Below are positions 1-18,805 of a stretch of DNA of 31,126 bases, piece after piece (the stretch's first letter is position 1; each line of letters opens with the position of its first letter). Source of the DNA: a virus. The notes below the pieces were generated by a model that searched no databases, was not told the origin of the DNA, and saw only the letters and a program-made list of their open reading frames with translations. Made by a program: the position numbers and the translations under genes. Location of the stretch: the UHGV virus genome UHGV-0313797. One strand, written 5' to 3'.

Positions 1-111
1 ATGCGGGCAACGGTGTTTAATTATATCGAATGTGATTACAATCGGTGGCGGCGGCACAGTTGGTGTGGCGGCCTCAGTCCGGAACAATTTGAAAACAAGA
101 ACCTCGCTTAG
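1..111 (+). CDS. IS3-family transposase (OrfB), C-terminal fragment, 5'-truncated by the window edge
   Basis: Frame 1 translates to ...[30 protein letters not shown] then stop; this matches the characteristic C-terminal tail of IS3-type integrase-fold transposases. Not in the ORF track because it has no start within the window. Confidence 0.7.
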
Positions 112-141
112 GCCTGTGTCCATATTACGTGGGTAGGATCA
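1..141 (+). mobile_element. Right end of an IS3-family insertion sequence (partial; element continues left of the window)
   Basis: Sequence ends ...CCTCGCTTAGGCCTGTGTCCATATTACGTGGGTAGGATCA at 141, which matches my recollection of the IS3 right terminal inverted repeat; an open frame ending at 111 encodes a transposase C-terminus. Confidence 0.7.
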
Positions 142-262
142 CGCAGGGGTCGGCCCATTTGAGCTTCAGATAGGAACGTTTGAATTCCTTTCACAAAATA
201 CATCACATACTGAACGTGAACATTCCCACTTTGATCTTAAGGCCAAAAAGTATGCAGGACTA

Positions 263-1981
263 ATGATTTTTAGGGATAGCTTGAGAGTATTACCTTATGG
301 TCGAGTAGATAATGATTTCTTCCAGATAGAAGAAAGACGTTCATGGAATGCAGGGCGATATTATTGGTCTAATAGAAGGATTTTTGGTTATATTGGAATT
401 ACTCAATCCAGTAATAAAGAGCTGAAAGATAAGTCGGGGAGAGAGGGATTCATAAGAAACCAGGCTGCAAGAGAACTGAAAACTATTATATCTAATTTGT
501 TAACTGAACTTGCTGATAGATTTTTTGGTTCACGTTCTGATGACCGTAAAGAGCTTTTAGAACAAGTTAAGCGTGAAAAAGAGTTAAGAAAATCTGCTCA
601 ACAACAAGCTCGAAAATCAACACAAAAAAGTTTTTCAGAAGCTTTGAAGAATCAGACACCAGTTCTTGATGCTTCCTTGGAGGCTGTTAAAAGGCTGAAA
701 ACTAAGCTTGATAAAACTGATGGTTCGTTAGATTTAAACTATCTTAAAATTATAGACAGTGATCTTACAAACTTAGATGCGTTGCGCAGTGAAATTAAAA
801 CGCCTATCAAACCTCCAAAACTTGGAATGTATGAAGAGAAATATAGAGACTACAGAGATAAATTTAATGAGTTCTCTGCGTATATTCTACAAATGAAGTT
901 AGCAATTAATAAACTTGATTCTGAATTAAATAAACTTGAGCCTTCATTGTCAGCGAAAAATCACCTTGAAAAAAATCAAGGTATTATTAATTCTAAACTA
1001 ACTAAGTTTAATAACACGATAGAGGAGAAGATACATTCTCTTTTAAAAAAATGGGCCGATGAAATAAAGGTTGATCGAAGTGATTATTATGCTAAAACTA
1101 TATCAGTTGTTGATTCAATAGATAATGATTCACAAATTGAAAATGTGTTTAATTTGCTCGATAGTTTATATGTTGAGTCAGTTGATACCCTAACTTTCAA
1201 ATATCAATCAATAATAAAAGGTCTCGATAGATTATTTGAAGGTATAAACTTAGATTCAGCATTCTCATTATCTGAAGAAGAACGCTCATATTTTGAAGAA
1301 AAAGCTAAAAGTTTAAACGCGCTTGCACAGTTAGGTATTAGTGTTGAGATAATATCTCATGAACTTGAAGAAATGGATTCTATGGTAACCAGAGGACTAA
1401 ACTCTCTTCCTACTTCTGTAAAAGAACACCCTGGTTTTTCATTGGCGTTAAATGCTCACAGATCGCTTACTCAACAAATACGTTTCTTATCACCTTTGAA
1501 AATATCAGGTTATCAATCCAGGCAGAGAATAACTGGAAAAAATATCATGGATTATGTCCTGAAGTTCTTTGGGGAGCGTTTCGAACGGCAACGAATAACT
1601 ATTGAATTTAGTGAAGAGTTTAAGCAAATCGCAATAACAGATATACCATCAAGGATCTATCCTGTTTTTACTAATATTATCAACAATGCAATGTATTGGG
1701 TCAGTCTGTCAAATAATAGGCTCATAAAGATTGGTTTTGTGAATTCTTTGGTTATCATAGCAAATTCTGGTCCGGCAATTGATACCGATGATATCCCGCG
1801 ACTATTTGAACTATTTTATAGCAAAAGAGCAAATGGACATGGGGTAGGTCTGTATCTATGTCGAGAAAACCTTGCTGTTGCACATCATAAAATATGGTAT
1901 TCAGAACCTGATGAAGGCGATAACTATTTAATAAAAGATGGCGCTAATTTTGTGATCCAGTTCAATGGAGTGGAGTTCTAA
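263..1981 (+). CDS. Histidine-kinase-like protein (coiled-coil N-terminal region, HisKA-like H-box, HATPase_c); possibly 5'-truncated by the IS3 insertion
   Basis: 572-aa ORF. C-terminal part shows an H-box-like ISHELEEMDS, an N-box NIINNAMYW, a G1-like IIANSGPAID and a G2 box GHGVGLYLCRE. The same frame stays open upstream from 263 back to position 137, inside the IS end. Confidence 0.6.
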   Translation: MIFRDSLRVLPYGRVDNDFFQIEERRSWNAGRYYWSNRRIFGYIGITQSSNKELKDKSGREGFIRNQAARELKTIISNLLTELADRFFGSRSDDRKELLEQVKREKELRKSAQQQARKSTQKSFSEALKNQTPVLDASLEAVKRLKTKLDKTDGSLDLNYLKIIDSDLTNLDALRSEIKTPIKPPKLGMYEEKYRDYRDKFNEFSAYILQMKLAINKLDSELNKLEPSLSAKNHLEKNQGIINSKLTKFNNTIEEKIHSLLKKWADEIKVDRSDYYAKTISVVDSIDNDSQIENVFNLLDSLYVESVDTLTFKYQSIIKGLDRLFEGINLDSAFSLSEEERSYFEEKAKSLNALAQLGISVEIISHELEEMDSMVTRGLNSLPTSVKEHPGFSLALNAHRSLTQQIRFLSPLKISGYQSRQRITGKNIMDYVLKFFGERFERQRITIEFSEEFKQIAITDIPSRIYPVFTNIINNAMYWVSLSNNRLIKIGFVNSLVIIANSGPAIDTDDIPRLFELFYSKRANGHGVGLYLCRENLAVAHHKIWYSEPDEGDNYLIKDGANFVIQFNGVEF

Positions 1982-1982
1982 T

Positions 1983-3731
1983 ATGACAGTGGCAAATTAT
2001 AATTCTCTTGTCCAGAAAACTTTCTGCGAAAATGCAATTCGTTCCGTTGTCATGATTGATGACGATTTTCTGACGTATTCTGAATCAATCAGGGCGTTGA
2101 ATAACGAAGTTGATTTAGACTACAACAAAATTGACTCATCTAAACGAGCCGCTACTCTTGAGAGCTTTTTTCAATCTAAAAATATGATTTGTGATGTTGA
2201 CAATGGTTCTGTTAATTTCGATGTGGATCGGATTAGAAAATCAGATCTTATTATTGTAGATTATCATCTTGATAATAATGCACCTGATAAAACACTTAAA
2301 CTATTACAAGATTTGAAAGACTCCGATCATTTAAATATGATTGTAATATATACTAGAGAGAATTTAGAAACGGTTTGGATGCAGATATCATCGACTCTCA
2401 AAGGTGCTCTGGATATCAACAGCTTGATCATTGACTACGATAATGAAGATGTCCAAAGTTATTGGGAAGACGTTGTATTACCGAACTTAAATGATAATGG
2501 TAATAAAGCTCTCACAAGAGATGAAACAATAGCCTATATTAAAGACAGTAAGCCTTGTAGAAGAATTAAAAGATTAATACATGATGATGCTGTGTTGAAG
2601 GATCAAAAGGATAAAAACTTCATTGCAAAAATGATTGCAGAATATGCTGTGTCTAGAAATGCAATTATTTCTAGCAACACATCTGGCAATGTCATTCGGG
2701 GTGATGAAAGCGGAGTAAAATGGATTCAATGTGGTAATATCTTTGTCTCCCTATTTCATAAGGTTCAAGATGATCATGAAAACGATGGAGATAGGATTTG
2801 GCAAACTCTCAATGATTCTCTCATTGAATGGAAACCATCTTATTATCAGTTAATAAAATCTGAAATTCAGAATGCAATCGAAGCTGAGGCTTTATCTTTT
2901 GTAAATCATTTGGCTAACGATCATTACGGTCAAGCTGCGTGGTTAAATGAGATATTAAAATCAGACTCGCCTGATATTAGATGTAGAAATATTGACTTTG
3001 TATTTGGTAATTTATCAGAAGAGCTTTATCAAAGACTTAAAAATAATAATACGCTGGATGAATTTATCAAAAGTGTTTTTGATAGCTATTCAAATGAATA
3101 CGCTAACAGCGGAGTTGCTGCATTGCTCCAATATTGCTCTTCAAAAATGGATCTGCCATCAAATAATGATACTTATCACGAAATGTATCATGCTTTAAAT
3201 ATGAATTTGTCTTCAAAGAATTTTGAAGATGGTCATATTTCTACTGGCACTATTTTCTTTGATACAGAGTCGAACAAATGGTATTTATGTGTATCTGCGG
3301 CATGTGATTTGGTTCCTACTCAGGGTAACGACCCTCACCATGTAAGATTAAGTCCGCACAGGCTCATTAAAGTTCTGGAGCTTTTTAACGCCAGTCAGAG
3401 TAAAGCATTGCCATTTGCTGAACATTCGAAATATATATATGTAATGCATAAAAATCAAAGAAAATATCTCTCTATTTTCGAAGGGGATAAAACGCTTCCT
3501 GTTGTTGATTATATGGTGGTGTTGAATCATGGAACAACAGTTGATGGCGAAGAAAAAAATATTATTTCTGCCGTGTTTTTAAGTAATATGGATGGCAACG
3601 TGCAAAATGTTCCTGTCCGACTCAAACTTAAATCTCAACTGAGAACTGGTTATGCAGAAAGATATCAGGCTATAGCGTCTCAGTATAGCTCAAGGATTGG
3701 TGTGGATTATGTATCAATGATGCTACCATAA
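1983..3731 (+). CDS. Receiver (REC)-like domain protein with a large uncharacterized C-terminal region
   Basis: ORF 1965..3731; preferred start is the ATG at 1983, 7 nt after a GGAG. N-terminus has VVMIDDD (acidic pair), then IIVDYHLD (candidate phospho-acceptor Asp) and IVIYT (conserved Thr), a receiver-like pattern with longer spacing than canonical. Residues 150-582 have no motif I recognise. Immediately follows the kinase-like gene. Confidence 0.5.
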   Translation: MTVANYNSLVQKTFCENAIRSVVMIDDDFLTYSESIRALNNEVDLDYNKIDSSKRAATLESFFQSKNMICDVDNGSVNFDVDRIRKSDLIIVDYHLDNNAPDKTLKLLQDLKDSDHLNMIVIYTRENLETVWMQISSTLKGALDINSLIIDYDNEDVQSYWEDVVLPNLNDNGNKALTRDETIAYIKDSKPCRRIKRLIHDDAVLKDQKDKNFIAKMIAEYAVSRNAIISSNTSGNVIRGDESGVKWIQCGNIFVSLFHKVQDDHENDGDRIWQTLNDSLIEWKPSYYQLIKSEIQNAIEAEALSFVNHLANDHYGQAAWLNEILKSDSPDIRCRNIDFVFGNLSEELYQRLKNNNTLDEFIKSVFDSYSNEYANSGVAALLQYCSSKMDLPSNNDTYHEMYHALNMNLSSKNFEDGHISTGTIFFDTESNKWYLCVSAACDLVPTQGNDPHHVRLSPHRLIKVLELFNASQSKALPFAEHSKYIYVMHKNQRKYLSIFEGDKTLPVVDYMVVLNHGTTVDGEEKNIISAVFLSNMDGNVQNVPVRLKLKSQLRTGYAERYQAIASQYSSRIGVDYVSMMLP

Positions 3732-3802
3732 TTATTATATTTTAGGCGTGGTGATTTTTTTTCGCCATGCCTATTTTATATTTATCATCACAATGATGTT
3801 GT

Positions 3803-4219
3803 TTATTTTTGTTTAAGTCTTCTAAGCTTCATGCATTCTAATGAGAATAATAATAGAGTTGTGCTGTATATAAAGCCAGAGTTAGTTAATAACTTTAAAT
3901 TTAATGCTTCAGGATTTTCACTGAGAAAGTGAAAGGCATAAACTAAGTATACAGCTAAAGTAGCCGTTCCAATTGTTGGTCCAATATCGCCTTGATCATG
4001 AGGTTCAAGGTTTACATTGAACTTGAAGATTAGCCATTCAAATCCCCAAGTAAAAAAAACAACTAATATCATGGCTGCGAATAATTTCGCGATGTTATCT
4101 GCTGATGGATTCATCAGAACAGATTGTTTCTGAAAAAATTCACAAAGTGAGAGTCCGAAAAAAATAAAAAAAAGTGGTCTGGAACTAAATTTTTCAAAAA
4201 CTTTGAATAGGGTTTCCAT
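3803..4219 (-). CDS. Small hydrophobic (membrane) protein, hypothetical
   Basis: 138-aa ORF with several hydrophobic stretches (LFFIFFGLSL, FAAMILVVFFTWGF, TATLAVYLVYAF); AGG-type RBS upstream of the ATG; AT-rich. Confidence 0.45.
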   Translation of the reverse strand: METLFKVFEKFSSRPLFFIFFGLSLCEFFQKQSVLMNPSADNIAKLFAAMILVVFFTWGFEWLIFKFNVNLEPHDQGDIGPTIGTATLAVYLVYAFHFLSENPEALNLKLLTNSGFIYSTTLLLFSLECMKLRRLKQK

Positions 4220-4257
4220 TTTCTTTACCTTCAGGATTATATTAGCTATTCTGATAC

Positions 4258-5487
4258 TTAGGCTACCAGAGCATTTGATCTTTGAGCTTGAAGGTAATCA
4301 CTCCACCATTGCATCAAACTCTGTCGCTCTATCAGATATTCTGCACGATTGTATGCTGCGATAATTTCATCTTTTTTCGAGTGGGCAAGCGCTGCCTCAA
4401 GAACTTCAGCTCTGAATTTACCAGACTCCTCTGCCGCTGTTCGTGCAATAGAACGCATACCGTGAGCTACAAGCTCGCCTCCGAACCCCATTCGGATGAT
4501 AGCTGCGTTGGCTGTTTGTTCATGCATATGATTAAGAGGCGCTTTTATGCTGGGGAAAACCCATTCTCTATGCCCACTTATTGATTTCATTAATTCAAGG
4601 ATGCGCAAAGCTTCTTTACTCAAAGGAACTTTGTGAAGCTTTTTCATTTTCATGAAATCAGCAGGAATGTTCCAAATGCTGTTGGTTGTATCAATATCAG
4701 ACCACCTTGCGCGAACGGCTTCACCCGGACGAACCCATGTCAACAATTGCCATTCAATTAGCATACGTGTTTCCAACCGGATTGACGCATTCGTCAAAGA
4801 TTCCATAAACCTTGGCAATTCGCTTGGGGGAAGGGCAGGCATATTTTGCTTTTTTGGTTTACTGAATCTTTGACCAAGGTTGTCAGCCGGGTTGAACTCA
4901 ATAAGTTCTTCAGTAGCTGCCCACCGGAAGATTTCATTCAGACGTGAAATGATACGGCGTAGAGTTTCCAATACGCCTCGTTGCTCAATAGGATCAAGGT
5001 GTTGTTTTAAGAGCTTAGGTCGGATCTCATTGATAGGGACATTACCCAGACCGGGAAAGACATTTCTCTCTAAGCTGCGCCAGATGTCTGCTGCATGGTC
5101 TTGTGAGATACCTGATGTCTTTACCTTCTCATCTAACCATTTCCGCGCTACGGCTTGGAGAGTGTGCTCAGTAGCACTCTTTAATGCCTTCGCCTTATCG
5201 TTGTTATGGATTTGGGGATCAACACCATTTGCCAGAAAGGAGAGATATTCATCACGTAAGGCTCTGGCTCTTGCAAGGGTAAGGTGAGGATATGTCCCAA
5301 GGCTCATTTTGGTTCTTTTCTTGCTCACTGGTACTGCATACCTGAAATACCAATTTTTCTTGCCTCCTTTCGCCAAAGGAGCGATTCGTAGAATCAGACC
5401 ATCACCGTCAAACAAGTTGATTTCTTTATCGGCTGGCTTGGTGCTTTTGATTTCAGTGTCAGTGAGCTTCTTAGCGATTTTTGCCAT
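4258..5487 (-). CDS. Tyrosine recombinase, P4-type integrase family
   Basis: ORF 4258..5529 trimmed to the ATG preceded by GGAGGG (MAKIAKKLTDTEIKS...). N-terminus resembles the P4-integrase N-terminal domain (LTDTEIKSTKPADKE...LFDGDGLILRI); catalytic-domain-like C-terminus (HGMRSIARTAAEE, AHS...AAYNRAEY). Sits directly downstream of a tmRNA 3' end copy, as CP4-57 intA does at ssrA. Confidence 0.85.
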   Translation of the reverse strand: MAKIAKKLTDTEIKSTKPADKEINLFDGDGLILRIAPLAKGGKKNWYFRYAVPVSKKRTKMSLGTYPHLTLARARALRDEYLSFLANGVDPQIHNNDKAKALKSATEHTLQAVARKWLDEKVKTSGISQDHAADIWRSLERNVFPGLGNVPINEIRPKLLKQHLDPIEQRGVLETLRRIISRLNEIFRWAATEELIEFNPADNLGQRFSKPKKQNMPALPPSELPRFMESLTNASIRLETRMLIEWQLLTWVRPGEAVRARWSDIDTTNSIWNIPADFMKMKKLHKVPLSKEALRILELMKSISGHREWVFPSIKAPLNHMHEQTANAAIIRMGFGGELVAHGMRSIARTAAEESGKFRAEVLEAALAHSKKDEIIAAYNRAEYLIERQSLMQWWSDYLQAQRSNALVA

Positions 5488-5652
5488 TTTGGGACCCTCG
5501 GTTTTTGGACCCTTCTTAGTGGGTCCCATTCAGGGTGCCATAACTCGTAGTTCTCAGCAATTCTCACTGGACGACAATAGACGTAAAAAAGCCCGCAGAG
5601 CTTGTGCTGTGTGGGCTTAGTAGACTTCATTGAACTTCAAACAACTAAAAAG

Positions 5653-5697
5653 TGGTGGAGCTGGCGGGAGTTGAACCCGCGTCCGAAATTCCTACAT
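5653..5697 (-). repeat. 45-bp copy of the tmRNA (ssrA) 3' end: attachment-site core at the junction of the two integrated elements
   Basis: Reverse complement reads ATGTAGGAATTTCGGACGCGGGTTCAACTCCCGCCAGCTCCACCA, which matches the E. coli ssrA 3' terminus as I recall it; similarity stops abruptly on the 5' side, so this is an att duplicate and not a full tmRNA gene. Confidence 0.7.
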
Positions 5698-5752: not shown

Positions 5753-6844
5753 TTAGACTGTGTTAGGCATTTTTACGTCGTTAAACTTCTTTGTCGCCAT
5801 TTTGCCGCCACTGGAAGCTTTTATAACGTTAGGCTTTGTATATTTATCCCAGTGAGGAGAATAAATCGGACAATCAAGTGTAATATATTGATCAAAAAGA
5901 AATCTAAAGTCTGTTTCATATATATAATTAATTATATGTTCATACGGAGCTAATTCGGCACCATAAATTATCGTTTTTATTTTTCTTGTTAGATATATAC
6001 TTGCCTCAACGAATTCAAGAAAAGCATTTTCTTCGTGAGCAAAAGTAATAATACTGTATTCATTGATCGATATTTTATATCTTGCCCGCATAATACTGTC
6101 GATACAGAGCTTTTCAAAAATCATGGCTGTTTTGTTAGAAACAGAATTTATTATTCTAAGGTACTCCAGTGGTTTATTTTCTGGGGCCAGTTTCCTTGGT
6201 TTTAGTGCGTTATCTATATCTCTAAGTAATACTTCTATTTCTTCTAGGAACTTGCTGCTTGGTTCGAAGTTAGATAGGCTGTGTGGGGCTGAGTTGGGGT
6301 ATATTTTTTTATAGAGCAAGTAAGGATTTGTAATTTTAACTTGATCGGTAGTTGCTATTTTTTCATTATCAATTTCCTTGGACGAAATGATGCTTCCATC
6401 TTTGTTAGATAGATTTAAAATTGTGAAAGTAGATAAGTGGTTTATTTTTTCGATGAAGTTTTTTTCATGAGCCAAATATCTGTCAACGGCATTTTTGCTA
6501 TCAGCTGCTTGTATTTGTGCTTCGGTTTGAATTGTGCGATGAATATTGTTTACTATCGATGCGAGAGGAACAGAACTTGCTAGTAGCAATAAAGGAAACT
6601 TGCTGATCTCATAAAATCTAAAATATCCGTGAGCAGTGAGGACAGGTGTTTTTCCACTCCATGCAAAGTAACCAAAGTAAAAAAATGAAAAAACAGGAAG
6701 TAAAATCGATAACCAAAATAATTTTTGGCGGTATAGATTTCTTTTGTCTAACTTGTACCATCTCCTCCAAATGGAAATGATTAAAATTAATATAATTATT
6801 GTTGCATAAATATAAATGTATATATGGTCAGGATATGTTTTCAT
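5753..6844 (-). CDS. Membrane-anchored hypothetical protein; cargo gene translationally coupled to the prophage integrase
   Basis: 363-aa ORF; its ATG overlaps the int stop codon (ATGA overlap at 6841-6844). N-terminal predicted TM segments (ATIIILILIISIW, LFWLSILLPVFSFFYFGYFAW, FPLLLLASSVPLASIV) followed by about 270 soluble residues with no recognised motif. Visibly AT-rich compared with neighbouring phage genes. Confidence 0.6.
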   Translation of the reverse strand: MKTYPDHIYIYIYATIIILILIISIWRRWYKLDKRNLYRQKLFWLSILLPVFSFFYFGYFAWSGKTPVLTAHGYFRFYEISKFPLLLLASSVPLASIVNNIHRTIQTEAQIQAADSKNAVDRYLAHEKNFIEKINHLSTFTILNLSNKDGSIISSKEIDNEKIATTDQVKITNPYLLYKKIYPNSAPHSLSNFEPSSKFLEEIEVLLRDIDNALKPRKLAPENKPLEYLRIINSVSNKTAMIFEKLCIDSIMRARYKISINEYSIITFAHEENAFLEFVEASIYLTRKIKTIIYGAELAPYEHIINYIYETDFRFLFDQYITLDCPIYSPHWDKYTKPNVIKASSGGKMATKKFNDVKMPNTV

Positions 6845-7863
6845 ACGTGATTTATACTATTTAGTGGGTTTTTGGTTACTGCATCTTCAAGATGTTCAGG
6901 GGAAAAATGTGCATATACCATGGTCATCTTGATATCTGAGTGACCCAATATATCTCTCAATACTAGGATATTTCCGCCGTTCATCATAAAATGGCTGGCG
7001 AATGTATGGCGCAACACGTGAGTGCATTGGCCATCAGGCAGTTCGATACCGGCCCGTTTTACTGCACGCTCAAAGGCTTTTCTGCATGGTGTGAATAACT
7101 TCCCTCTGTTTTTGGGTAGCTCGTTGTACAGATCCTGAGATATCGGTACGGTGCGGTTTTTTTTACCCTTTGTCTTTGTATAGGTAATCCGGTATTTCGA
7201 TAGTTGATGTCCCTGCAGGTTTTCAGCTTCACTCCAACGTGCACCAGTTGCTAGGCATATTTTTGCAATCATCAGCAGACTGGGGCTTTGAGAATCAGCA
7301 CAGGCATCTAGCAGACGTTTAATTTCTTCCGGAGTCAAGAACGCCAGTTCACCTTCAGTAATTTTAAATGTTGGAAGCCCGGCAAGAGGGTTGGGGGCTG
7401 ACCAGTGGCCCAGCTTTTTCAGTGTACCAAAAACCGATGATAGGTTGCGTTGTTCAAGATTTACCGTGCGGGGCTTAACGGGCGACATTAGCGTGCCATC
7501 TTCATTTCGCACTTCACCTTTTAGCCGTGCTTCGCGGTATTTCGTAAAGTCACCGGCAGTCAGCTCTGAAGCGATGGGATCGCCTAGACCATTACAGATA
7601 ATTCTAAGTTTCGCCATGAGGCGCTTGGGGTCTGCGAGTGTTTGACCATATAGGGAATACCACAGCTCAATTAATTCTGATAGGCGTCTGCGATCTTCCT
7701 TTTCCCCCAACCATGGTTTTTTGTTCACTTCTTCCATTGTGAAGCTTTCAAAAGCAATGGCTTCGCCTTTTGTAGCAAATTGCTTACGTACGCGCTTGCC
7801 ATTGCGTCCATTGGGATAGCACTCACACAACCATTTACCGTTTGGCTGTTTTCTGACAGTCAT
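6841..7863 (-). CDS. int: P2-type prophage integrase (tyrosine recombinase)
   Basis: 340 aa; C-terminal catalytic region HVLRHTFASHFMMNGGNILVLRDILGHSDIKMTMVYAHF is typical of P2/186 integrases; size and position next to the repressor gene match the P2-family layout. Confidence 0.9.
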   Translation of the reverse strand: MTVRKQPNGKWLCECYPNGRNGKRVRKQFATKGEAIAFESFTMEEVNKKPWLGEKEDRRRLSELIELWYSLYGQTLADPKRLMAKLRIICNGLGDPIASELTAGDFTKYREARLKGEVRNEDGTLMSPVKPRTVNLEQRNLSSVFGTLKKLGHWSAPNPLAGLPTFKITEGELAFLTPEEIKRLLDACADSQSPSLLMIAKICLATGARWSEAENLQGHQLSKYRITYTKTKGKKNRTVPISQDLYNELPKNRGKLFTPCRKAFERAVKRAGIELPDGQCTHVLRHTFASHFMMNGGNILVLRDILGHSDIKMTMVYAHFSPEHLEDAVTKNPLNSINHV

Positions 7864-7865
7864 GT

Positions 7866-8498
7866 TTAGATACTCTTTATTACTTTGACTGCGCGCCCAA
7901 TAATTTCCACATCATCAGCAGAACACTCGAAAGACGCTTCATCTTGATTTACTACAATCTTATTGCCGGGAATCCGCATGATTTTTGCAATAATAATCAT
8001 TCCATCAATATTGATTAGCCAGAATCCATTGCTGACTTGTTTAACTGATTTATCGATGAGATAACAATCAGTTGGGGTTTCTAAGAACATCGATTCTTCA
8101 TAATGTGCAGGTAATATGCTGTGGTCTAGGAAAATATCTTCATCAATACTGAGTTTTCCATTCTCTAAGGTTCCTTTAGGAATAGATGGAGTTATGAGTT
8201 TGGATAGTGGTTTAATTGCTTGTTTGTTCTCATTATGAGATCTTTTCTCAGGCTCACATCCTCCTTTCATGCTTCCCTGGCCTGTAGCTAACCAAAGCAA
8301 CGAAACACCGGTTTCTAGTGCGCACTGAATTATCCAGTCAGCAGGAAAACTGTCGCGTAACACTCTGTTTGCCATAGTGCTTTTTGAGACATTCAGGTGC
8401 TCGCTTAATGCCTGCTTAGTTGTGAATCCATAAGCCTCAAGCAGCCTCTCAATAGCTGCCTTGCCTCCCGTATCGGAACCCATTCTGATGTTTAACAT
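7866..8498 (-). CDS. cI: Immunity repressor, phage 186 CI-like
   Basis: ORF 7866..8546 trimmed to the ATG preceded by GGAGA (MLNIRMGSD...). N-terminal HTH-like region (CALETGVSLLWLATGQG) resembles 186 CI; divergent from apl and upstream of int as in 186. Confidence 0.75.
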   Translation of the reverse strand: MLNIRMGSDTGGKAAIERLLEAYGFTTKQALSEHLNVSKSTMANRVLRDSFPADWIIQCALETGVSLLWLATGQGSMKGGCEPEKRSHNENKQAIKPLSKLITPSIPKGTLENGKLSIDEDIFLDHSILPAHYEESMFLETPTDCYLIDKSVKQVSNGFWLINIDGMIIIAKIMRIPGNKIVVNQDEASFECSADDVEIIGRAVKVIKSI

Positions 8499-8619
8499 TG
8501 GTAATCTCCATTTGAAAATCTTGAGTCGAGATCGTAATGTCTTCATGTCTCTTGATGTGAGAGTTTAAGAGACGGACTAAAACGAACTAACACGCACACA
8601 AAGTAAGAGATACTGCACT
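8499..8619. promoter_or_regulatory. Lysis-lysogeny switch region (expected face-to-face lytic and lysogenic promoters with operators)
   Basis: 121-bp intergenic region between the divergent cI and apl genes; call is by position and analogy to the 186/P2 switch. Individual promoter hexamers were not resolved. Confidence 0.4.
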
Positions 8620-8894: not shown

Positions 8895-9404
8895 ATGTTT
8901 GATTACAGGATTTCCAAACATCCGCATTTTGATGAAGCCTGTAGAGCTTTTGCACTACGTCACAATATGGCGAAGCTGGCAGAACGTGCAGGAATGAATG
9001 TCCAGACTCTGCGAAACAAACTCAACCCAGATCAACCGCATCAGCTCAATGCGCCAGAAATCTGGCTGCTTACCGATCTGACTGAAGATTCAACGCTGAT
9101 AGATGGTTTTCTGGCACAGATTCACTGCCTTCCATGTGTACCGATTAATGAGGTAGCAAAAGAGAAACTGCCGCATTACGTCATGAGTGCAACCGCAGAG
9201 ATCGGGCGTGTTGCTGCAGGTGCGGTATCTGGCGATGTAAAAACCAGTGCAGGTCGTCGTGATGCTATCAGCAGCATTAACTCTGTAACACGACTGATGG
9301 CGCTGGCTGCTGTTTCATTGCAGGCCCGTTTACAGGCTAACCCTGCGATGGTGAGTGCAGTTGATACCGTGACTGGCCTCGGTGCTTCATTCGGTTTGCT
9401 GTGA
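8895..9404 (+). CDS. cII: CII-like lysogeny establishment activator (186 CII family)
   Basis: 169 aa, the same length as 186 CII; follows apl; RBS AAGGGGG before the ATG. Confidence 0.75.
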   Translation: MFDYRISKHPHFDEACRAFALRHNMAKLAERAGMNVQTLRNKLNPDQPHQLNAPEIWLLTDLTEDSTLIDGFLAQIHCLPCVPINEVAKEKLPHYVMSATAEIGRVAAGAVSGDVKTSAGRRDAISSINSVTRLMALAAVSLQARLQANPAMVSAVDTVTGLGASFGLL

Positions 9405-10695: not shown

Positions 10696-10994
10696 CAAGG
10701 GCAGTGCGTATCCATCAATTAAAAATTGCACCTAAGTATTTCAACGCTGTGGTTGCAGGTCAAAAGACGGCTGAACTTCGTAAAGACGATCGTGGCTATA
10801 AAGTTGGTGATGTTCTTTCTCTTTGCGAATGGAAGCATGGCGTATTTACGGGTAGGGAATGGGCCGCTGTTATCTCTCATGTGCTTCCGGTTAATGACGT
10901 CATGGCAGTTTCAGAACAATGGGTGATGCTGTCAATTCGCCCATTAACCCCATTAGAAGCTTTAGGATATGTTATTGCCGGAGGTGCTGTATGA
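10692..10994 (+). CDS. Small ASCH/DUF3850-like protein
   Basis: ORF 10632..10994 trimmed to the ATG after GGAGG ([41 protein letters not shown]...); motif arrangement recalls DUF3850/ASCH proteins often found beside phage methylases. Domain assignment is from memory. Confidence 0.5.
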
Positions 10995-11848
10995 GCACCA
11001 TCCTGAAATGGGCGGGAAATAAAACCGCCATTATGCCAGAACTGAAAAAACACCTTCCAGCTGGCCCGCGACTGGTTGAACCTTTCGCGGGTTCCTGTGC
11101 GGTGATGATGGAGACGGATTATCCAAGCTATCTGGTTGCGGATATTAATCCTGATTTAATCAACCTCTATAAAAAGGTTGCCGCTGATTGTGAATCGTTT
11201 ATATCTCGCGCCAGAGTTTTATTTGAGAACGCAAACAGGGAGGTAGCTTATTACAACATAAGGCAGGAGTTTAATTACTCAACTGAAATTACTGATTTCA
11301 TGAAAGCGGTATATTTCCTGTATCTCAATCGTCACGGTTACCGTGGTTTATGTCGCTATAACAAGAGCGGGCATTTCAATATTCCCTACGGTAATTATAA
11401 AAATCCGTATTTCCCTGAAAAAGAAATTCGCGCATTTGCAGAAAAAGCCCAGCGGGCAACGTTTATCTGCGCCAGCTTTGATGAAACGCTGGCGATGTTG
11501 AAGGCGGGGGATGTGGTGTATTGCGATCCGCCTTATGACGGTACGTTTTCCGGCTATCACACTGATGGTTTCACTGAAGATGACCAGTATCACCTGGCAT
11601 CCGTTCTTGAACATCGATCATCTGAAGGACATCCGGTCATTGTTTCTAACAGTGACACATCCCTGATTCGTTCGCTGTATCGCAATTTTACTCACCACTA
11701 TATCAAGGTAAAACGCAGCATCGGTGTGGCAGCTGGCGAGTGTAAATCAGCAACAGAAATCATCGCTGTTTCCGGGCCGCGCTGCTGGGTGGGATTTGAT
11801 CCTTCGCGTGGCGTGGATAGTTCTGCCGTGTACGGAGTGCGTGCATGA
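10991..11848 (+). CDS. dam: DNA adenine methyltransferase, Dam family
   Basis: ORF 10919..11848 trimmed to the ATG after [16 protein letters not shown]..., [28 protein letters not shown] and catalytic VYCDPPY align closely with E. coli Dam. Confidence 0.9.
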
Positions 11849-14259
11849 GCCATGCTGATATGAACAACTGCAGCGGCTTTAACGAGGTCGCAGCAGCATT
11901 CTCATGGAGCAGCCCGAAAAAGGCCATTAACCCTTATCTGGACCCGGCGGAAGTTGCGCCGGTTTCTGCGCTTTCAAACCTGATCACTCTGTACGCTGCC
12001 GATAACGAGCAGGAACAGCTGCGCCGTGAGGCGCTGAGTGATCAGGTCTGGGAGCGTTATTTCTTTAATGAATCCCGTGATCCTGTCCAGCGCGAAATCG
12101 AGCAGGATAAGCTCATTAGTCGGGCAAAGCTGGCGCATGAGCAGCAGCGTTTTAATCCGGATATGGTCATTCTGGCGGACGTCAACGCCCAGCCTTCCCA
12201 TATCAGCAAGCCGCTGATGCAACGTATTGAATACTTCAGCAGCCTGGGCAGGCCAAAGGCTTATTCCCGCTATTTGCGTGAGACGATTAAGCCATGTCTG
12301 GAACGACTGGAGCATGTACGCGAGAGTCAGCTATCCACTTCTTTTCGCTTTATGGCAAGCCATGAAGGGCTGGACGGCCTGCTGATCCTGCCTGAAATGA
12401 GTCAGGATCAGGTGAAGCGCCTGTCTACCCTTGTTGCCGCGCATATGAGCATGTGCCTTGATGCAGCTTGTGGTGATTTGTATGCCACCGATGACGTTAA
12501 GCCAGAAGAAATCCGCAAGACATGGGAAAAGGTGGCAGCGGAAACCCTGCGTCTGGATGTAATCCCTCCTGCGTTTGAGCAACTCCGTCGGAAAAGAAAC
12601 CGCCGTAAACCCGTGCCCTATGAACTCATTCCGGGTTCGCTGGCGCGTATGTTGTGCGCCGACTGGTGGTATCGGAAATTATGGAAGATGCGTTGCGAAT
12701 GGCGGGAAGAGCAGTTGCGTGCTGTCTGCCTGGTCAGCAAAAAAGCATCTCCCTATGTCAGCTATGAAGCCGTGATGCATAAACGTGAGCAGCGCCGTAA
12801 GTCGCTGGAGTTTTTCCGTTCTCATGAACTGGTGAACGAAGACGGCGACACGCTGGACATGGAGGATGTGGTAAACGCCAGCAGCAGCAACCCGGCGCAT
12901 CGCCGCAATGAGATGATGGCCTGTGTTAAAGGTCTGGAGCTTATCGCGGAAATGCGCGGTGACTGCGCCGTTTTCTACACCATCACCTGTCCGTCACGTT
13001 TCCATTCCACGCTCAATAACGGCAGACCAAACCCGACCTGGACAAACGCGACGGTAAGACAAAGCAGCGATTATCTGGTCGGCATGTTTGCTGCATTTCG
13101 TAAGGCGATGCACAAAGCCGGGTTGCGCTGGTATGGCGTGCGGGTGGCTGAGCCGCATCATGACGGCACAGTTCACTGGCACCTGTTGTGTTTCATGCGC
13201 AAAAAAGACCGCCGTGCCATCACTGCATTACTGCGTAAGTTTGCCATCCGTGAAGACCGCGAGGAGCTGGGCAATAACACTGGGCCGCGCTTTAAGTCTG
13301 AGTTGATTAACCCGCGCAAAGGAACGCCAACAAGCTACATCGCGAAATACATCAGTAAGAACATTGACGGGCGTGGTCTGGCTGGCGAGATCAGCAAGGA
13401 AACGGGGAAATCCCTGCGTGATAATGCTGAATACGTTAATGCCTGGGCGTCTCTGCATCGTGTTCAGCAATTCCGCTTCTTTGGCATTCCGGGGCGTCAG
13501 GCTTACCGTGAACTGCGATTGCTGGCTGGTCAGGCGGCAAGGCAACAGGGGGACAAAAAAGCAGGTGCGCCGGTACTGGATAACCCACGCCTTGATGCCA
13601 TCCTGGCTGCTGCTGATGCTGGTTGTTTTGCCACCTACATCATGAAGCAGGGCGGCGTACTGGTTCCCCGCAAATATCACCTCATCAGAACCGCTTATGA
13701 AATCAACGAAGAGCCGACCGCCTATGGCGATCACGGCATTCGTATTTATGGCATCTGGTCACCTATTGCAGAGGGCAAGATCTGCACTCATGCCGTGAAG
13801 TGGAAAATGGTTCGTAAGGCCGTTGATGTTCAGGAGGCGGCAGCTGACCAGGGCGCTTGCGCCCCTTGGACTCGTGGCAATAACTGTCCCCTTGCTGAAA
13901 ATTTGAACCAACAGGAGAAAAACAAATCAGCTGATGGGGATACCAGAACGGATATCACCCGCATGGATGACAAAGAGTTGCACGAATACCTGCACAGTAT
14001 GAGCAAAAAAGAGCGCCGGGAACTGGTAGAAAGGTTACGCCTGGTTAAACCGAAACGGCGTAGAGACTACAAACAGCGAATTACAGACCATCAACGACAG
14101 CAGCTCGTCTATGAACTGAAATCCAGAGGATTTGATGGCAGCGAGAAAGAGGTCGATTTACTCCTTCGCGGCGGCAGTATTCCGTCAGGAGCAGGCCTGC
14201 GTATCTTCTATCGGAACCAGCGTTTGCAGGAAGATGATAAGTGGCGGAACCTGTATTAA
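11845..14259 (+). CDS. A: Replication initiation endonuclease, P2 gpA family (rolling-circle initiator)
   Basis: 804 aa, last gene of the early operon; contains [13 protein letters not shown] (HUH-type metal-binding motif) and downstream tyrosines (SYIAKYISK); position before the cargo locus matches P2/186 gene A. Confidence 0.85.
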
Positions 14260-14351
14260 TTACGCTGGTTAACAATTCGTGCTCTTAATAATACCAGGCA
14301 TATCAGGCTGATAAGCGTAAAAAAACGTTTTACATCAGTAAGATTATTATA

Positions 14352-14371
14352 TACTGTAAATATAAACAGTG
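14352..14371. promoter_or_regulatory. LexA (SOS) box
   Basis: TACTGTAAATATAAACAGTG: CTGT-N8-ACAG with an AT-rich spacer, matching the LexA consensus; lies about 40 bp upstream of the small ORF at 14413. Confidence 0.6.
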
Positions 14372-14412
14372 GTTATGCATACAGTATTGCGTGTGGTGTC
14401 ATAGGAGGAAAG

Positions 14413-14601
14413 ATGCAGGACTATTTTTTGGAGTCTTTGAAGCTCCAGCGCATTGATTTTTTTCTTAAGCTTGTAGCGGCTAGTGAGTGCGATGATGAAG
14501 AGAAGCGGCTTGCTATCCAGTGGGTTTCGGAGCTGACCGATGAGTTAATGGCGAAAATCCGTACTCATGAGTACAACCGTTCAATGGATCTCCCCGGTTA
14601 G
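14413..14601 (+). CDS. Small SOS-controlled protein; candidate Tum-like antirepressor
   Basis: 62-aa ORF with a strong RBS (AGGAGG, 6 nt spacer); preceded by the LexA box; in the position of the LexA-regulated tum gene of phage 186. Sequence identity to Tum was not verified. Confidence 0.45.
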   Translation: MQDYFLESLKLQRIDFFLKLVAASECDDEEKRLAIQWVSELTDELMAKIRTHEYNRSMDLPG

Positions 14602-15186
14602 GCTTAGGAACGTTGCTGGCGTTAGGACTTGATTCTGACGCTAGCAAGGTTGATCAACGAGCCATGCGAGGCGTTAGTCATGGGCAAAAAAATAGTAACT
14701 TCCAGATTTTGTTTCGTGCCAGGTATTGAGTAGTTTTATCGCCAGAGGGGCTGTTAGCGCTCAAACTACTAATGGAGCCACACCTTAGATGAGTGATTTG
14801 GCTTAAGCTATGATTATATAGTTTCGCTGTACGGCGGCCTTGCTTTTTATTGAAGCGACCAGACTGGAACAACGGCGAAAGGAGACTAACGATACGCACC
14901 AGTTTTTTGAAAAGGTACAGTTATCTAGATTGGTTGCCAATTTTCGTTGAAACCTGACATACCATTAGGTCATTGCTTTAGAAAAATTAATACTTGATGT
15001 GAGAATTGCTTCAAAACATCTAGAATTAAAATTTCTTTACTAGTATGCTTCACCACTTGGTCGTTGGGTTGAGTGCAAAAGCTAAGGCTGATGCCCAGTA
15101 CGCTATCCGCATTATTGCCAGAGAACCGATTCGAAACCGGAATCTGGCAGAGCATGGGCGCAAGTGCTGGCTTCCCAACGGCCTCG

Positions 15187-16155
15187 TTATTTATAATATG
15201 CTGACTTCAAAACCACTCGTCTTTCAACCTGCTGTGATAGCATTACCGCGTTAGTCCAATCTTTTGGATACCTTATTTCTTCTATAACACGAATATAAGC
15301 ACATACTTTATTTTTTCCTTCTCCTTTGGCATAAGTAACCTCTAGATTATTAAATTTCAATAAGTGCTCTCTTCTTTGGTAAGTAAAACAGCCGTAATCA
15401 CGGACATCAGAAGAAGTAATAGCATGAGTTGAAGGAAACCGAACTAGTAAATTTCTCAAGTAGGGAATAATGTCCAAACTCGTTGCTTTGTTTTCTTCTC
15501 TGCGACTCTTTCTGAACATATGTCTCCAACCCAGCCGTGTAAGCTCGATTTTCCCAAGCACCGGAGATGTGATTTCTTTCTGTTCAGAATAACGTTTTTT
15601 AACAAACGCTCGCCGATTATTAAGTAGTGAGTTTCTTCTTCTTACATGGATTCCTTTTGCTCCAGTTTCACCTGCACGTATCATGGACATACAGCGAGCC
15701 AGGTCAAACCGTGTAGCCGGAGTGATTAAGTGATATTCTCCATAAGTTTGGTTTTTAAGGGTAGTGTTTGGATGTATATAGGCCCAAAATGCTTTACGAT
15801 TAGTTCTGTCAACCCAAACGACACATATATGGTGAGTTGTCCTTTTGGCTGCTTTTTTTGCGGCCGAATTTAATACAAAACCTTTCTCTAATAAATGACC
15901 ATAAGTTGCCCCTGATTTAACTTGCGACAATATAAGCATTCTTTCTTTTGATGCCCATGGATGTTCGAAGGATAATATTAAATCTATTTTTGAATTGTCG
16001 TCTTCCCTGGAACCCCAGTGCCCCTCTCCTCTACAAGCAAGAATGAATTGACTCATTGCATAAGATTCGGCGTCACTGCCGTTAACTGAGTTAAACTGTC
16101 TTGTTTCTAGCACAGTTGGTATTGGTCGTGATGCAAGTAAACTGAAAGATCCCAC
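15187..16155 (-). CDS. Uncharacterized cargo protein in the A-Q variable locus; possible PD-(D/E)xK-like N-terminal region
   Basis: 322-aa ORF starting at a GTG 8 nt downstream of GGAGAG. AT-rich. N-terminal region has GEGHWGSREDDNSKIDLILSFEHP...ERMLILSQVKSG, a D...(Q)xK pattern compatible with a restriction-endonuclease-like fold; a strongly basic segment (IHVRRRNSLLNNRRAFVKKRYSEQKE) follows. No confident family assignment. Confidence 0.55.
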   Translation of the reverse strand: MGSFSLLASRPIPTVLETRQFNSVNGSDAESYAMSQFILACRGEGHWGSREDDNSKIDLILSFEHPWASKERMLILSQVKSGATYGHLLEKGFVLNSAAKKAAKRTTHHICVVWVDRTNRKAFWAYIHPNTTLKNQTYGEYHLITPATRFDLARCMSMIRAGETGAKGIHVRRRNSLLNNRRAFVKKRYSEQKEITSPVLGKIELTRLGWRHMFRKSRREENKATSLDIIPYLRNLLVRFPSTHAITSSDVRDYGCFTYQRREHLLKFNNLEVTYAKGEGKNKVCAYIRVIEEIRYPKDWTNAVMLSQQVERRVVLKSAYYK

Positions 16156-16592
16156 TTATAGTTCTCTCCAAAAAATTGCATAATCTCGAACGCTAAAAAA
16201 TAGTATACAAACTAAAGTATTTTTTCATTTAATTCAATGTATTGGCTAAAATTAAGACATTTATAGCTATATGTACTAGATAACATAGCGTTGTTTTCCT
16301 TTTGAAATCTCTTCTTGTGGTAACACAACAGTATTTACTCAAGTAGTTTGTCACTGCATGGGGAGATTTCGCTATGTCCGCGGCATCATACAGATGCGAT
16401 AGATTTTCAGCATGACCTTGGGTAGCAAATCTGTAGGTATCATCCATTGCACCTCAAAGTAACTCTGGTGCATACCTATGCTGCATGAAAATGAATGATC
16501 GCTAGTGGATCGTTTATGTCGAAGCCTGCCAGTTCTGACGGGCTTTTGCTTATGTTATGCAACTGCATGAAAACCACTACACAAAGCGGGCA

Positions 16593-16611
16593 GGCGTGGC
16601 GGGGATACGAG
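16593..16611. other. Candidate cos site (cohesive-end sequence of the P2/186-like genome)
   Basis: GGCGTGGCGGGGATACGAG shares its first 13 nt with the 19-nt cohesive end of phage 186 (GGCGTGGCGGGGAAAGCAT, from memory) and lies in the A-Q interval where P2-like prophages carry cos. Confidence 0.45.
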
Positions 16612-16719
16612 CGCGCGCTGTATGCCTGAAGTGGCTAAAATAGTATCTGTCATAGGTACAACTTAGTGTAGTATCATCCATATAATCCATTGAAATATAA
16701 TCGACTCTCATTAGAGGTG

Positions 16720-17718
16720 ATGATGAACGGAATCTGGTACGAAAACACTCATACACGCATTCCTAATTTTGAAACAACAGTACATCAAAAGCACAAATTC
16801 GGTTACGCTTATGAAACAACAAGTCATTTTGTGCATCTGTATGGGCGTGACGTGGGATTTAATGTAATATCAGTTGGGTTAACTGTTATTGAGCAACGAA
16901 GTGGAACTCTCAATGATTGGGTTCGGAGAGTATTTGGGGCTCAGAACATATCTCCTTTAGATAATGAAATTGGACATGTAACTAGGGGAGTGTGGCGGCC
17001 ATCCTTATATTATGTCAATGATACAGAAACAGCATTAGGTATCGATGAGTTTGAAAAAAGAGCAACAGAGCAAGCTCTAAGAGTTTTGATAGAAAAACTC
17101 GATGATATTTTTCTATATGTAGAACCAAGTGCCCATGGTTTGATTTCTTACAGTCATAAATGTAGAGAGCTATTAATTCTTGCTTGTACTGAGGTTGAAA
17201 ATCAATGGGTGTCAATCATTGGTAATTCGAATTTATCTCGTTCAAATGGTCGATACTCCACAAATGATTATGTGAAATTATTAGATAAGTGTTATTTGTC
17301 TGAATATAAAATTCAATATTTGAATTATGACGGATTAAGGCATTTCAAACCTTTTGATGGGTGGAATGCAAGTACCCCTACAACATCTTTGTCATGGTAT
17401 AATGCATATAATAAAACTAAACATGATAGATCAGGAGCATTCCACTTTTCCACTTTAGAAAATGTAATGGATGCAGTTGCTGCTTGTGTTGTAATGTACT
17501 GTGTAAAATATGGCCCGTTTAGCTTATTGGAAGCCAATACGTCTCTATCAACGATCGTTAATCAAAACTTTTCAATTTCATTAGATAATAGCAATCCAGC
17601 AAGTTATTACATTCCTGAAATTGAACTTCCACCGGATACAAGAACGGATTTATTAATTTATGATTGTTATCGAGAAAACCATAATAAAGCATGGGTCACT
17701 GATCCCCTAGTGCTCTAA
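16720..17718 (+). CDS. Uncharacterized cargo protein with a HEPN-like Rx4H motif; candidate abortive-infection effector
   Basis: ORF 16690..17718 trimmed to the ATG after AGAGGTG (MMNGIWYENTH...). AT-rich. C-terminal region has YNKTKHDRSGAFHFSTLENVMDAVAAC; RSGAFH fits the R-x4-H signature of HEPN RNase domains. Single-motif evidence only. Confidence 0.55.
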   Translation: MMNGIWYENTHTRIPNFETTVHQKHKFGYAYETTSHFVHLYGRDVGFNVISVGLTVIEQRSGTLNDWVRRVFGAQNISPLDNEIGHVTRGVWRPSLYYVNDTETALGIDEFEKRATEQALRVLIEKLDDIFLYVEPSAHGLISYSHKCRELLILACTEVENQWVSIIGNSNLSRSNGRYSTNDYVKLLDKCYLSEYKIQYLNYDGLRHFKPFDGWNASTPTTSLSWYNAYNKTKHDRSGAFHFSTLENVMDAVAACVVMYCVKYGPFSLLEANTSLSTIVNQNFSISLDNSNPASYYIPEIELPPDTRTDLLIYDCYRENHNKAWVTDPLVL

Positions 17719-17728
17719 TTTCCTGCTA

Positions 17729-17758
17729 AAGGGAGCTTTTAATTATAAACGCTCCCTT
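17729..17758. terminator. Hairpin between convergent genes (possible bidirectional terminator)
   Basis: Perfect 8-bp inverted repeat AAGGGAGC / GCTCCCTT around a 14-nt AT-rich loop, located between the stops at 17718 (+) and 17775 (-); no clear U-tract. Confidence 0.35.
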
Positions 17759-17774
17759 CGGTTGTCGCTATTTA

Positions 17775-18748
17775 TTATATATCAATAGAGTTTTGAAATT
17801 TTAATAACTGCCATCTTGTTAATAGTGGTTTTATTGCTATGTTGTGTTGGGTATTTATTTTTAAACCTTCGAATTTCGAATATCCATTTTCCAAGGCTTC
17901 CACTGAAAAATGAATGGTTTTTGTTATCGGGTTTATAGCACAAAGATTTAGGTTATATAAAGTATGAATGTCACTTCTGAGCAATAATCCATTGCTAATA
18001 TGATTGTGACTATCGTTTCGATATACATTAATGTGAGCAGCATCAAGAATATCAACAAGCTTACAGCCCATAACCGCACAAGTAGGATTTGATTTTAATA
18101 GCTGGTCGCGAAATGTTTTTTGCCCACTTCGTTGTTTTATTTGCCGTTCTACAATTTGCCGTTGATCTTCACCCATTAAAGTGGGGGTGTCTTTATCAGC
18201 TTCGCTGGCGTTGAGCTCCAGAATAATAGTATGTTGGGCGGTAAGCAAAGCAACAGCCCATTGATAGTTAACTTCTTGGATGGACATTTGCCCATTGTAG
18301 CGTGGAGTTTCATCTATAAATTGTGACATTGTAATATTGGATAATTTACGGTACTGGTTGCCGCAGTATGCTATAAATTCTTTAGCTGGCTCAAAAACCA
18401 CTCTGGGTTCATCAAATTCATGGCCATTATCACAACGCCACTCTGATTTTATAGTTTTCCTTTGAAGAATTTTTTTGCTTTGCAGTCTAGGTTAATACAT
18501 TTGTTACGCTTCTTATTAATGCTCTGTGTTTCTAATTTTTCAATAACAGATATACCTAAAATATTTTCTCTGTTGGTAATAATAATAATATCACCGTCTT
18601 TTACATTTTTGTGGTTCGCTACAAAACTGTCATAGCGATAGAAAACTGATGAGTCATCGGGATAACTATCATTTCCCCAGTATCTAAGATCGTCTTTCTC
18701 AATTGCCTTAAAAAAAACCATACTTGCTGTACCATGAACTTTTCCCAC
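17775..18748 (-). pseudogene. HNH-family endonuclease (HNH_2-like) split by a frameshift in a homopolymer tract
   Basis: Two consecutive minus-strand ORFs (18449..18748 and 17775..18401) overlap in different frames around a run of 7 A (minus strand) at 18470-18476; one extra A would fuse them into about 320 aa. Downstream part has CAVMGCKLVDILDAAHINVYRNDSHNHISNGLLLRSDIHTLYNLN (C..C...AHI....SNGL.L...H..Y), the signature of McrA-like HNH nucleases. Confidence 0.6.
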
Positions 18749-18805
18749 TAATCAAATTTTGGTTTGTTCTATCGAACAGCAAAGCATGTTGATATACAAG
18801 AGAAA

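Follow-up and report, generated by a model that had tools for sequence, protein, structure and literature searches.

The DNA analysed here is the virus genome UHGV-0313797, a stretch of 31,126 nucleotides (nt) to which we refer as a whole as the window, and its positions 142 to 3731 hold two adjacent genes encoding a histidine-kinase-like protein (open reading frame 1, ORF1) and a receiver-like protein (ORF2). We find that this pair is a member of the published HEF_HK/Response_reg_2 'TCS-like' (two-component-system-like) family (PF19191/PF19192) and not a new variant, and that its first gene is cut short where an IS3 element ends; this identity and this truncation we regard as practically certain. 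The best overall explanation of the pair, to which we assign a probability of roughly 0.7, is that it represents the broken remainder of a three-gene system resembling restriction-modification (R-M), in which a C5 DNA methyltransferase accompanies a kinase with a GHKL-type ATPase head and a receiver protein with an effector part. The pair and its border with IS3 are laid out as follows:

1..141, plus strand: 3' end of IS3 (end of the orfB transposase and right terminal inverted repeat, ...GGGTAGGATCA), recognised by identity to RefSeq-annotated IS3
142..262, plus strand: start-less, in-frame remnant of the kinase gene, about codons 377-416 of the intact 988-amino-acid protein, from alignment to the intact island L003
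263..1981, plus strand: ORF1, 572 amino acids, the C-terminal 58% of the GHKL-ATPase::histidine-kinase; RefSeq WP_000577254.1, 'ATP-binding protein'
1328..1504, plus strand: HEF_HK (DHp/H-box) domain, Pfam PF19191, with the conserved His-Glu
1646..1921, plus strand: HATPase_c catalytic domain with N, G1 and G2 boxes, Pfam PF02518
1983..3731, plus strand: ORF2, 582 amino acids, Response_reg_2 receiver and family-specific C-terminal module; RefSeq WP_000214990.1
1983..2831, plus strand: receiver (REC) fold with a helical insertion of about 110 residues between alpha4 and beta5
2832..3728, plus strand: C-terminal output module, by predicted fold

A first-pass annotation, made from the sequence alone, had recognised a kinase H box and ATP-binding boxes in the first gene and a phospho-receiver domain at the N-terminus of the second, and Pfam bore out both assignments. 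ORF1 matched HEF_HK at residues 356-414 (E 1.2e-5, 26.1 bits against a cut-off of 24.1) and HATPase_c (PF02518) at residues 462-553 (E 1.8e-11); it thus has the H box and the N/G1/G2 ATP-binding boxes of a canonical two-component kinase, and its core aligns by sequence with the DHp and CA parts of the Thermotoga ThkA structure 3a0r. The predicted phospho-acceptor histidine is residue 366 of ORF1 (window 1358-1360), equivalent to H782 of the intact protein, and H782 and E783 are invariant among 32 diverse full-length kinase homologues, as are N887/N890/N891, G919 and G941xGVGL; the Asp position of the G1 box is occupied by Asn in 19 of these 32 kinases and by Asp in 13, the window copy having Asn. 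ORF2 matched Response_reg_2 (PF19192) at residues 25-181 (E 3.7e-31), and its (beta-alpha)5 fold presents the acidic pair D26/D27, the acceptor D93 (window 2259-2261), T124 and K260 expected of a receiver, all of which are invariant in 49 receiver proteins. With these kinase and receiver features the pair resembles a canonical two-component system, from which it differs in having no DNA-binding or other recognised output domain: no further Pfam match, and hence no DNA-binding output domain, was found in either ORF even at E<=1, nor did Pfam or NCBIfam reveal a recognisable effector in ORF2. The two genes had been described as overlapping, which is true of the longest readings, 263..1981 and 1965..3731 (plus strand, 588 amino acids for the latter), but conservation places the start of ORF2 at ATG 1983, 1 nt past the ORF1 stop, with GGAG 7 nt upstream and with a methionine that is nearly invariant in the alignment of 49 sequences. 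Judged by this alignment the genes abut and do not necessarily overlap, and they look translationally coupled.

Behind the receiver of ORF2 the first-pass annotation had seen about 430 residues of unrecognised function lacking a DNA-binding domain; the lack of such a domain holds, but the module comprises about 300 residues. In the predicted structure a helical bundle (about residues 287-410) is followed by a beta-rich domain (411-553) and then by a helix and the conserved RIGVD(Y/F) tail. Modelled alone, residues 284-582 gave a predicted local distance difference test (pLDDT) value of 82.7, but the structural prediction that had been proposed for this part led to no relative, since a Foldseek comparison of the model with the PDB returned no match (best E 0.044, template modelling (TM) score about 0.1). 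Neither a PDB profile search nor a profile comparison with MazF and CcdB gave anything. The beta-domain is possibly a toxin-like beta-barrel, a description that we take as a lead only. A search of 1.84 billion representative proteins yielded 644 clusters with the output module, and the best 150 of the 644, considered as candidates for reuse of the module elsewhere, all share the receiver-plus-module architecture; as far as these clusters indicate, the module is not reused in other architectures and hence provides no functional hint.

The truncation of the first gene can be placed to the nucleotide. The window opens within an IS3 element that ends at position 141: positions 1-141 are identical to the end of an annotated IS3 with its transposase and include the IS3 terminal sequence, and window 1-5697 is 99.95% identical to locus L001 7860-13555, where an IS3-like element is annotated over the window start and a full IS3 copy of 1258 bp is readable at L001 6743-8000. 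On the other side, window 141..5696 aligns at 98.96% identity with 11127..16681 of the intact locus L003, in which the kinase gene starts at 10001. The alignment with the window thus begins 1127 nt inside the gene and the breakpoint is window 141/142, corresponding to L003 11127/11128; the kinase gene is short of 376 codons, and its annotated ATG (263) corresponds to residue 417 of the intact protein. As the first-pass annotation had noticed, the ORF1 frame is open from this ATG back to the IS3 terminus, namely to position 137, the upstream stop being a TAG within the IS3 terminal repeat. Uninterrupted copies of the first gene, which it had suggested might exist in other genomes, were indeed found: 99%-identical homologues from Serratia, Klebsiella and Salmonella are 988 amino acids long and carry an N-terminal HATPase_c_3 domain (PF13589). 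Copies of 572 amino acids were confined to E. coli-like contexts in a search of 5.8 billion proteins, and no intact homologue starts at the equivalent of position 263, as one would expect had the gene not been truncated, the 572-residue forms being disrupted genes.

The suspicion that an N-terminal sensor part had been severed by the insertion was right in so far as the gene is truncated at the IS3 end; what has been lost, however, is a GHKL ATPase head, and it was lost through a deletion. On sequence evidence the missing part is an entire head of the MORC/MutL type and not a conventional sensor. Its motifs E32/N36/D39, D61xGxG65 and G104xKGxG109 are invariant in the 32 full-length kinases; GHKL motifs I-III are thus intact in the complete homologues, whereas the window does not code for them. 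Alignment of the head with those of MutL, PMS2 and Hsp90 is weak, and its residues 13-138 match the first ~120 positions of the NCBIfam model for the BbrUII/HgiDII restriction enzymes (E 1.5e-13, 50 bits against a cut-off of 550). Region 140-500 of the intact kinase has no Pfam match, and no tetratricopeptide repeat (TPR) match was found in the kinase, the intact N-terminus being the GHKL head. The long coiled coil described in the first-pass annotation corresponds to a linker stretch of ORF1 that is poor in Pro and Gly, rich in charge and in places heptad-like, a result of a crude heptad scan which is suggestive only. The upstream C5 DNA methyltransferase gene of the intact island is also gone from E. 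coli, and the deletion took in addition the rest of the island up to ygaQ, of which a truncated pseudogene stands on the far side of IS3. In a complete genome the bases next to IS3 are TTC at one end and CGC at the other, so that the 3-bp target-site duplication is absent, which indicates an IS-associated deletion and not a simple insertion; the deletion has IS3 at both breakpoints.

The nature of the complete unit emerged from its gene neighbourhoods. Relatives of ORF2 were scanned in one genome per species, which gave 38 loci, 32 of them with full-length kinase and receiver genes, and in 31 of these 32 a C5 methyltransferase gene is immediately adjacent. In 24 loci this gene stands upstream and shares the strand of the pair; in the other 7 it is downstream and runs the opposite way. 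Among the hosts are Enterobacterales, Acinetobacter, Vibrio, Alphaproteobacteria, Betaproteobacteria and Planctomycetota. In the intact island L003 the methyltransferase (PF00145, E 6.6e-59; TIGR00675 dcm, E 1.5e-47) lies directly upstream of the kinase, whose start its gene overlaps by 20 nt. The sole other recurrent neighbour, in 8 loci, is a Vsr-type mismatch endonuclease, an enzyme that accompanies genuine 5-methylcytosine methylation; among the recurrent neighbours in the 31 loci there is no gene for a separate nuclease, a helicase or a receiver on its own. The cassette rides integrative elements, the one in L003 having integrases and a relaxase and lying next to ssrA/smpB, and the pair is essentially chromosomal or island-borne, with 2 distant plasmid matches and with 2 matching phage records that only include the flanking relic. 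Judged by gene content and order, the unit is a mobile three-gene cassette made up of a C5 methyltransferase, a GHKL-kinase and a predicted receiver-effector. Within it the methylase may be exchanged: in the Acinetobacter loci L013-L016, where it is downstream on the opposite strand, and in the Planctomycetota locus L035 the p-distance of the adjacent methylase is 0.64-0.69 versus about 0.45-0.5 elsewhere, which suggests methylase replacement within the cassette.

The family itself was introduced in a computational study without experiments (Bellieny-Rabelo, Pretorius & Moleleki 2021, Genome Biol Evol; PMC8011034), which put the linkage of the two genes at 91.6%, noted C5 methylases upstream and Vsr as a neighbour, described a paraMORC origin, found the HATPase_c_3 head in 83% of the members, and counted 'HEF_HK + HATPase_c without HATPase_c_3' as a natural group 2 (34 of 222 sequences), with an E. 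coli protein among the examples. In the literature searched, no later functional paper on the family was found. The window copy shares with it HEF_HK, HATPase_c and an adjacent Response_reg_2 gene, both family domains scoring above threshold, but unlike the intact members it has neither the HATPase_c_3 head nor a neighbouring C5 methyltransferase. The head-less examples from E. coli and K. pneumoniae are a deletion product and a split gene, respectively, and in these cases the head-less 'architecture' is a broken gene. In the K. pneumoniae locus L044 (CP141543.1, 4734-7719) the methylase is kept and the kinase gene is split at about codon 304 into ORFs of 314 and 572 amino acids, as a result of what could be a frameshift or an assembly error, and because of this split, gene callers again report '572 aa'. 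Such '572-aa' forms in other species are therefore gene-caller products of disrupted genes and not a natural isoform. We also observed a gene for HsdM, a type I R-M methylase, a few kb downstream of the kinase locus in L044.

The 2021 authors speculated that the pair could be an ordinary regulatory two-component system, in which the C-terminal module of the receiver binds DNA and controls the methyltransferase or R-M genes. We consider this improbable: the complete and adjacent kinase and receiver genes, the published association with R-M genes and the helical bundle in the C-terminal module would all suit such a role, but the kinase input is a GHKL head of the type found in DNA enzymes and not a ligand sensor, the genes are mobile in islands together with the methylase as a single cassette, and no DNA-binding domain is detectable in the output.

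The broken form is widespread in E. coli. Of 5426 complete genomes 573 carry the pair, invariably on the chromosome, and in 561 the identity is >=99%; 483 complete genomes have the IS3 junction, and none of the 5426 has the methylase and the 5' part of the allele. In a further junction allele, present in 70 genomes, mostly O111/STEC strains (STEC stands for E. coli that make Shiga toxin), both breakpoints are identical and a 15-nt filler takes the place of IS3:

L045 (AJ304858.2) 2728-2742: filler ATCCTTAGAGATGCG at the IS3-less junction

On the simplest reading of the order of events, IS3 set the limits of the deletion and the STEC clade lost the element afterwards. Enterohaemorrhagic E. coli has an IS-excision enhancer that targets elements of the IS3 family and is capable of microhomology-mediated end joining (PMC9943667), and by analogy the 15-nt filler may be a scar of such activity. 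An old GenBank record of the prophage CP-1639 labels the stretch 'remnant integrative element' with a 'histidin kinase-like protein'. A 5.6-kb contig assigned to a 'Bacteroidales bacterium' metagenome-assembled genome (L006, DAIPZW010000118.1) shows 99-100% protein identity to the E. coli relic, including the truncated kinase, and is almost certainly an E. coli contig mis-binned into that genome.

We think that the E. coli pair is probably an inert relic inherited by descent, because the writer of the mark and the sensor head are both gone; the copy is without methylase, head and native promoter region. In both natural cases in which the methylase is missing, an intact GHKL head is missing as well: besides E. 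coli, this concerns L031, the one locus without a methylase, which also lacks the first ~75 residues of the head. Albeit with two cases only, this fits the prediction that loss of the methylase requires loss of the sensor as well, as would hold for a restriction enzyme, and its loss would have been tolerable in E. coli since the same event disabled the sensor.

That the decapitated pair is instead still working, expressed for example by read-through from IS3 and serving as a methylation-independent defence or stress module, we judge unlikely, although several observations would accord with it. Both ORFs are intact at >=99% identity in 561 complete genomes, but the identity among the E. coli copies is so high that descent alone explains their persistence. 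Between ORF2 and the intact allele there are 12 synonymous but only 2 non-synonymous changes; most of this divergence may, however, predate the deletion, and ORF1 shows 3 synonymous versus 5 non-synonymous changes, all of these being small numbers. The catalytic residues of kinase and receiver are all kept, and DeWeirdt, Mahoney and Laub (2026) list WP_000214990.1 and WP_000577254.1, from an ECOR strain, as 'Predicted novel defense gene' in DefensePredictor Table S5, with log-odds of 12.0 and 6.6 for the two E. coli proteins (PMC13092281); however, a language-model score mirrors the family and not the truncated state, and neither accession figures among the systems that this study tabulates as cloned and tested (PMC13092281). 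There is a Shine-Dalgarno-like AGGA ahead of the internal ATG at 263, but in a scan with the promoter consensus sites were no commoner than in shuffled sequence, and none was found upstream of 263. Moreover, it is the rule of the family, in 31 of 32 loci, that head and methylase accompany the pair.

How the intact system may work can be outlined from its parts. On the evidence of the alignments, it is a mobile cassette in which the residues predicted to serve in ATP binding, histidine phosphorylation and aspartate reception are intact and in which no DNA-binding output is seen. The methyltransferase would write a self-mark on host DNA, while the dimeric MORC/MutL-like GHKL head would engage or clamp DNA in an ATP-dependent manner and sense DNA that is without the mark. 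The linker, poor in Pro and Gly and rich in charge, would relay the signal to the DHp/CA core, which would autophosphorylate at H782 and then pass the phosphate to D93 of the partner, and the phosphorylated receiver would free the C-terminal effector, possibly the toxin-like beta-barrel, the outcome being restriction of the invader or abortive infection. Defence by such a methylation-gated phosphorelay in the intact form is a serious possibility that in our estimate falls a little short of even odds. More doubtful is the wider proposition that the triad is an R-M-like immunity system with a MORC-like methylation reader and an effector of new fold, and that its E. coli remnant keeps a live, sensor-independent kinase-effector arm.

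Several results weigh against the explanation that the window holds the broken remainder of an R-M-like triad. Both ORFs are intact in more than 550 genomes, which together with the 12:2 ratio in ORF2 leaves room for continued function of the remnant. The methylase co-varies weakly with the other two proteins: its distances correlate with those of the kinase and receiver segments with Spearman coefficients of 0.07-0.26, slightly higher for the GHKL and S5-like segments, in a comparison made without a permutation test. No nuclease or other known effector domain is found by Pfam or NCBIfam in any of the three proteins. Lastly, the role of IS3 as agent of the deletion is likely but unproven, because 70 genomes share the breakpoints without it.

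Comparison with described defence systems further delimits the triad. Detocs is made up of the TPR kinase DtcA, the free-standing receiver DtcB and DtcC, whose receiver is joined to a PNP or other known killing domain, and the first-pass annotation had raised the possibility that the pair is a distinct variant of it. This idea fails on architecture, and the family had been published in 2021. Both systems share the logic of His-to-Asp transfer, predicted in our case, from a kinase to a receiver fused to a non-transcriptional output on mobile DNA; but the intact kinase has a GHKL head where DtcA has its TPR sensor, a counterpart of DtcB is absent from the ORFs of the window and no stand-alone receiver gene recurs in the 31 loci, ORF2 has neither the PNP domain of the DtcC effector nor any other known domain, and the constant partner of the triad is a methyltransferase, which Detocs lacks. 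PADLOC gave only insignificant matches to known defence systems (PD-T4-6, E 0.026; C3a59, E 0.0027), none of which we accept. We rejected membership in Detocs on architecture together with the lack of a PADLOC match, and a Detocs variant without the buffer protein and with a new effector has a very small chance of being correct.

Closer relationships are seen on the side of the GHKL head. The triad shares with prokaryotic MORC/paraMORC proteins (Iyer, Abhiman & Aravind 2008) and with BbrUII/HgiDII a GHKL head with ATP-binding motifs, the association with cytosine methylase and Vsr, and mobility; whereas the described paraMORCs pair with helicases or bear nuclease domains, the head in the triad is fused to a histidine kinase that has a receiver partner. 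In GHKL-fused Shedu (VcSduA/paraMORC3) a GHKL head is likewise proposed to control a defence effector, which there is a PD-(D/E)xK nuclease (DUF4263) on the same polypeptide, unlike the predicted phosphorelay of the triad to a second protein in which no nuclease domain is detected. Of the endonuclease that a restriction-modification system proper would have, no domain was recognised in the three proteins of the triad, only the GHKL head resembling the N-terminus of BbrUII/HgiDII; in the window, moreover, the cognate methyltransferase, present in the intact relatives, is deleted.

The pair was also correctly taken to be island cargo in an AT-rich block: it lies on an integrase-bearing island at ssrA, and its block has a G+C content (GC) of 32-36% compared with 53-60% at 19-31 kb, in the half of the window that holds the late genes. 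Downstream of ORF2 the island contains the following features:

3743..3773, plus strand: terminator-like hairpin followed by a T-run, with a 12-pair stem and 6 GC pairs, just past ORF2
3803..4219, minus strand: 138-amino-acid predicted membrane protein, a neighbour peculiar to the island lineage
4258..5529, minus strand: tyrosine integrase of the island, 423 amino acids, intact; Pfam Arm-DNA-bind_3, Phage_int_M and Phage_integrase
5652..5697, minus strand: 3'-terminal 46 nt of ssrA (transfer-messenger RNA, tmRNA), the island's copy of the attachment site; ssrA is annotated at 13511-13873 in L001

The 138-residue protein has no Pfam, NCBIfam or PADLOC match, and its homologues occur only beside enterobacterial copies, so that it is not a conserved part of the module; the integrase is found at the corresponding place in the intact islands L003 and L004. 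Neither Rfam nor ARAGORN found a complete tmRNA or other RNA gene in the window. At 5697 the similarity to other strains stops and a P2-like prophage (5698-31126) follows, integrated beside the island relic at the site derived from ssrA; a full ssrA gene is presumably located past the prophage's far end, which would make a tandem array of elements at one attachment site. In the prophage Pfam recognised an integrase (6841-7863), CI (7866-8546), CII (8895-9404), a Dam-type methylase (10919-11848), replication protein A (11845-14259), the portal (18806-19837) and terminase (19834-21600) proteins, and also the GPO scaffold, the P2 capsid and a baseplate protein. Between replication gene A and the portal gene is an AT-rich block (14300-18800, 33-44% GC) that encodes proteins of 322 and 342 amino acids without Pfam or PADLOC match and a 208-amino-acid HNH_2 protein (PADLOC 'HNH', E 1.3e-7). 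We take this position to be a known cargo hotspot of P2-like phages, and its genes may be candidate anti-phage genes. An AT-rich ORF of 363 amino acids (5753-6844, minus strand) between the ssrA fragment and the P2 integrase, with predicted N-terminal hydrophobic segments and no Pfam or PADLOC match, may be a further cargo gene of the prophage end.

The finding is real and is explained in kind, as a truncated member of a published and already known family; new here are the exact anatomy of the E. coli deletion, the recognition of the head-less 'architecture' as a broken gene, and the fact that the E. coli candidates now found in lists of predicted defence genes are without their head. In databases and in the 2021 survey the head-less 572-residue form counts as natural, when at least in E. 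coli and K. pneumoniae it stems from a broken gene, and cloning 'the E. coli system' off the DefensePredictor list would mean cloning a decapitated version. The window copy is in itself of little weight, being a relic common to about a tenth of E. coli genomes, but the family extends over hundreds of sequence clusters and several phyla and has a cytosine methylase and a MORC-like ATPase wired to a predicted phosphorelay. If the proposed mechanism is true, this would be a defence system that couples an epigenetic self-mark to an effector via two-component signalling, and it would offer a tractable bacterial model for how MORC-type ATPases read the state of DNA.

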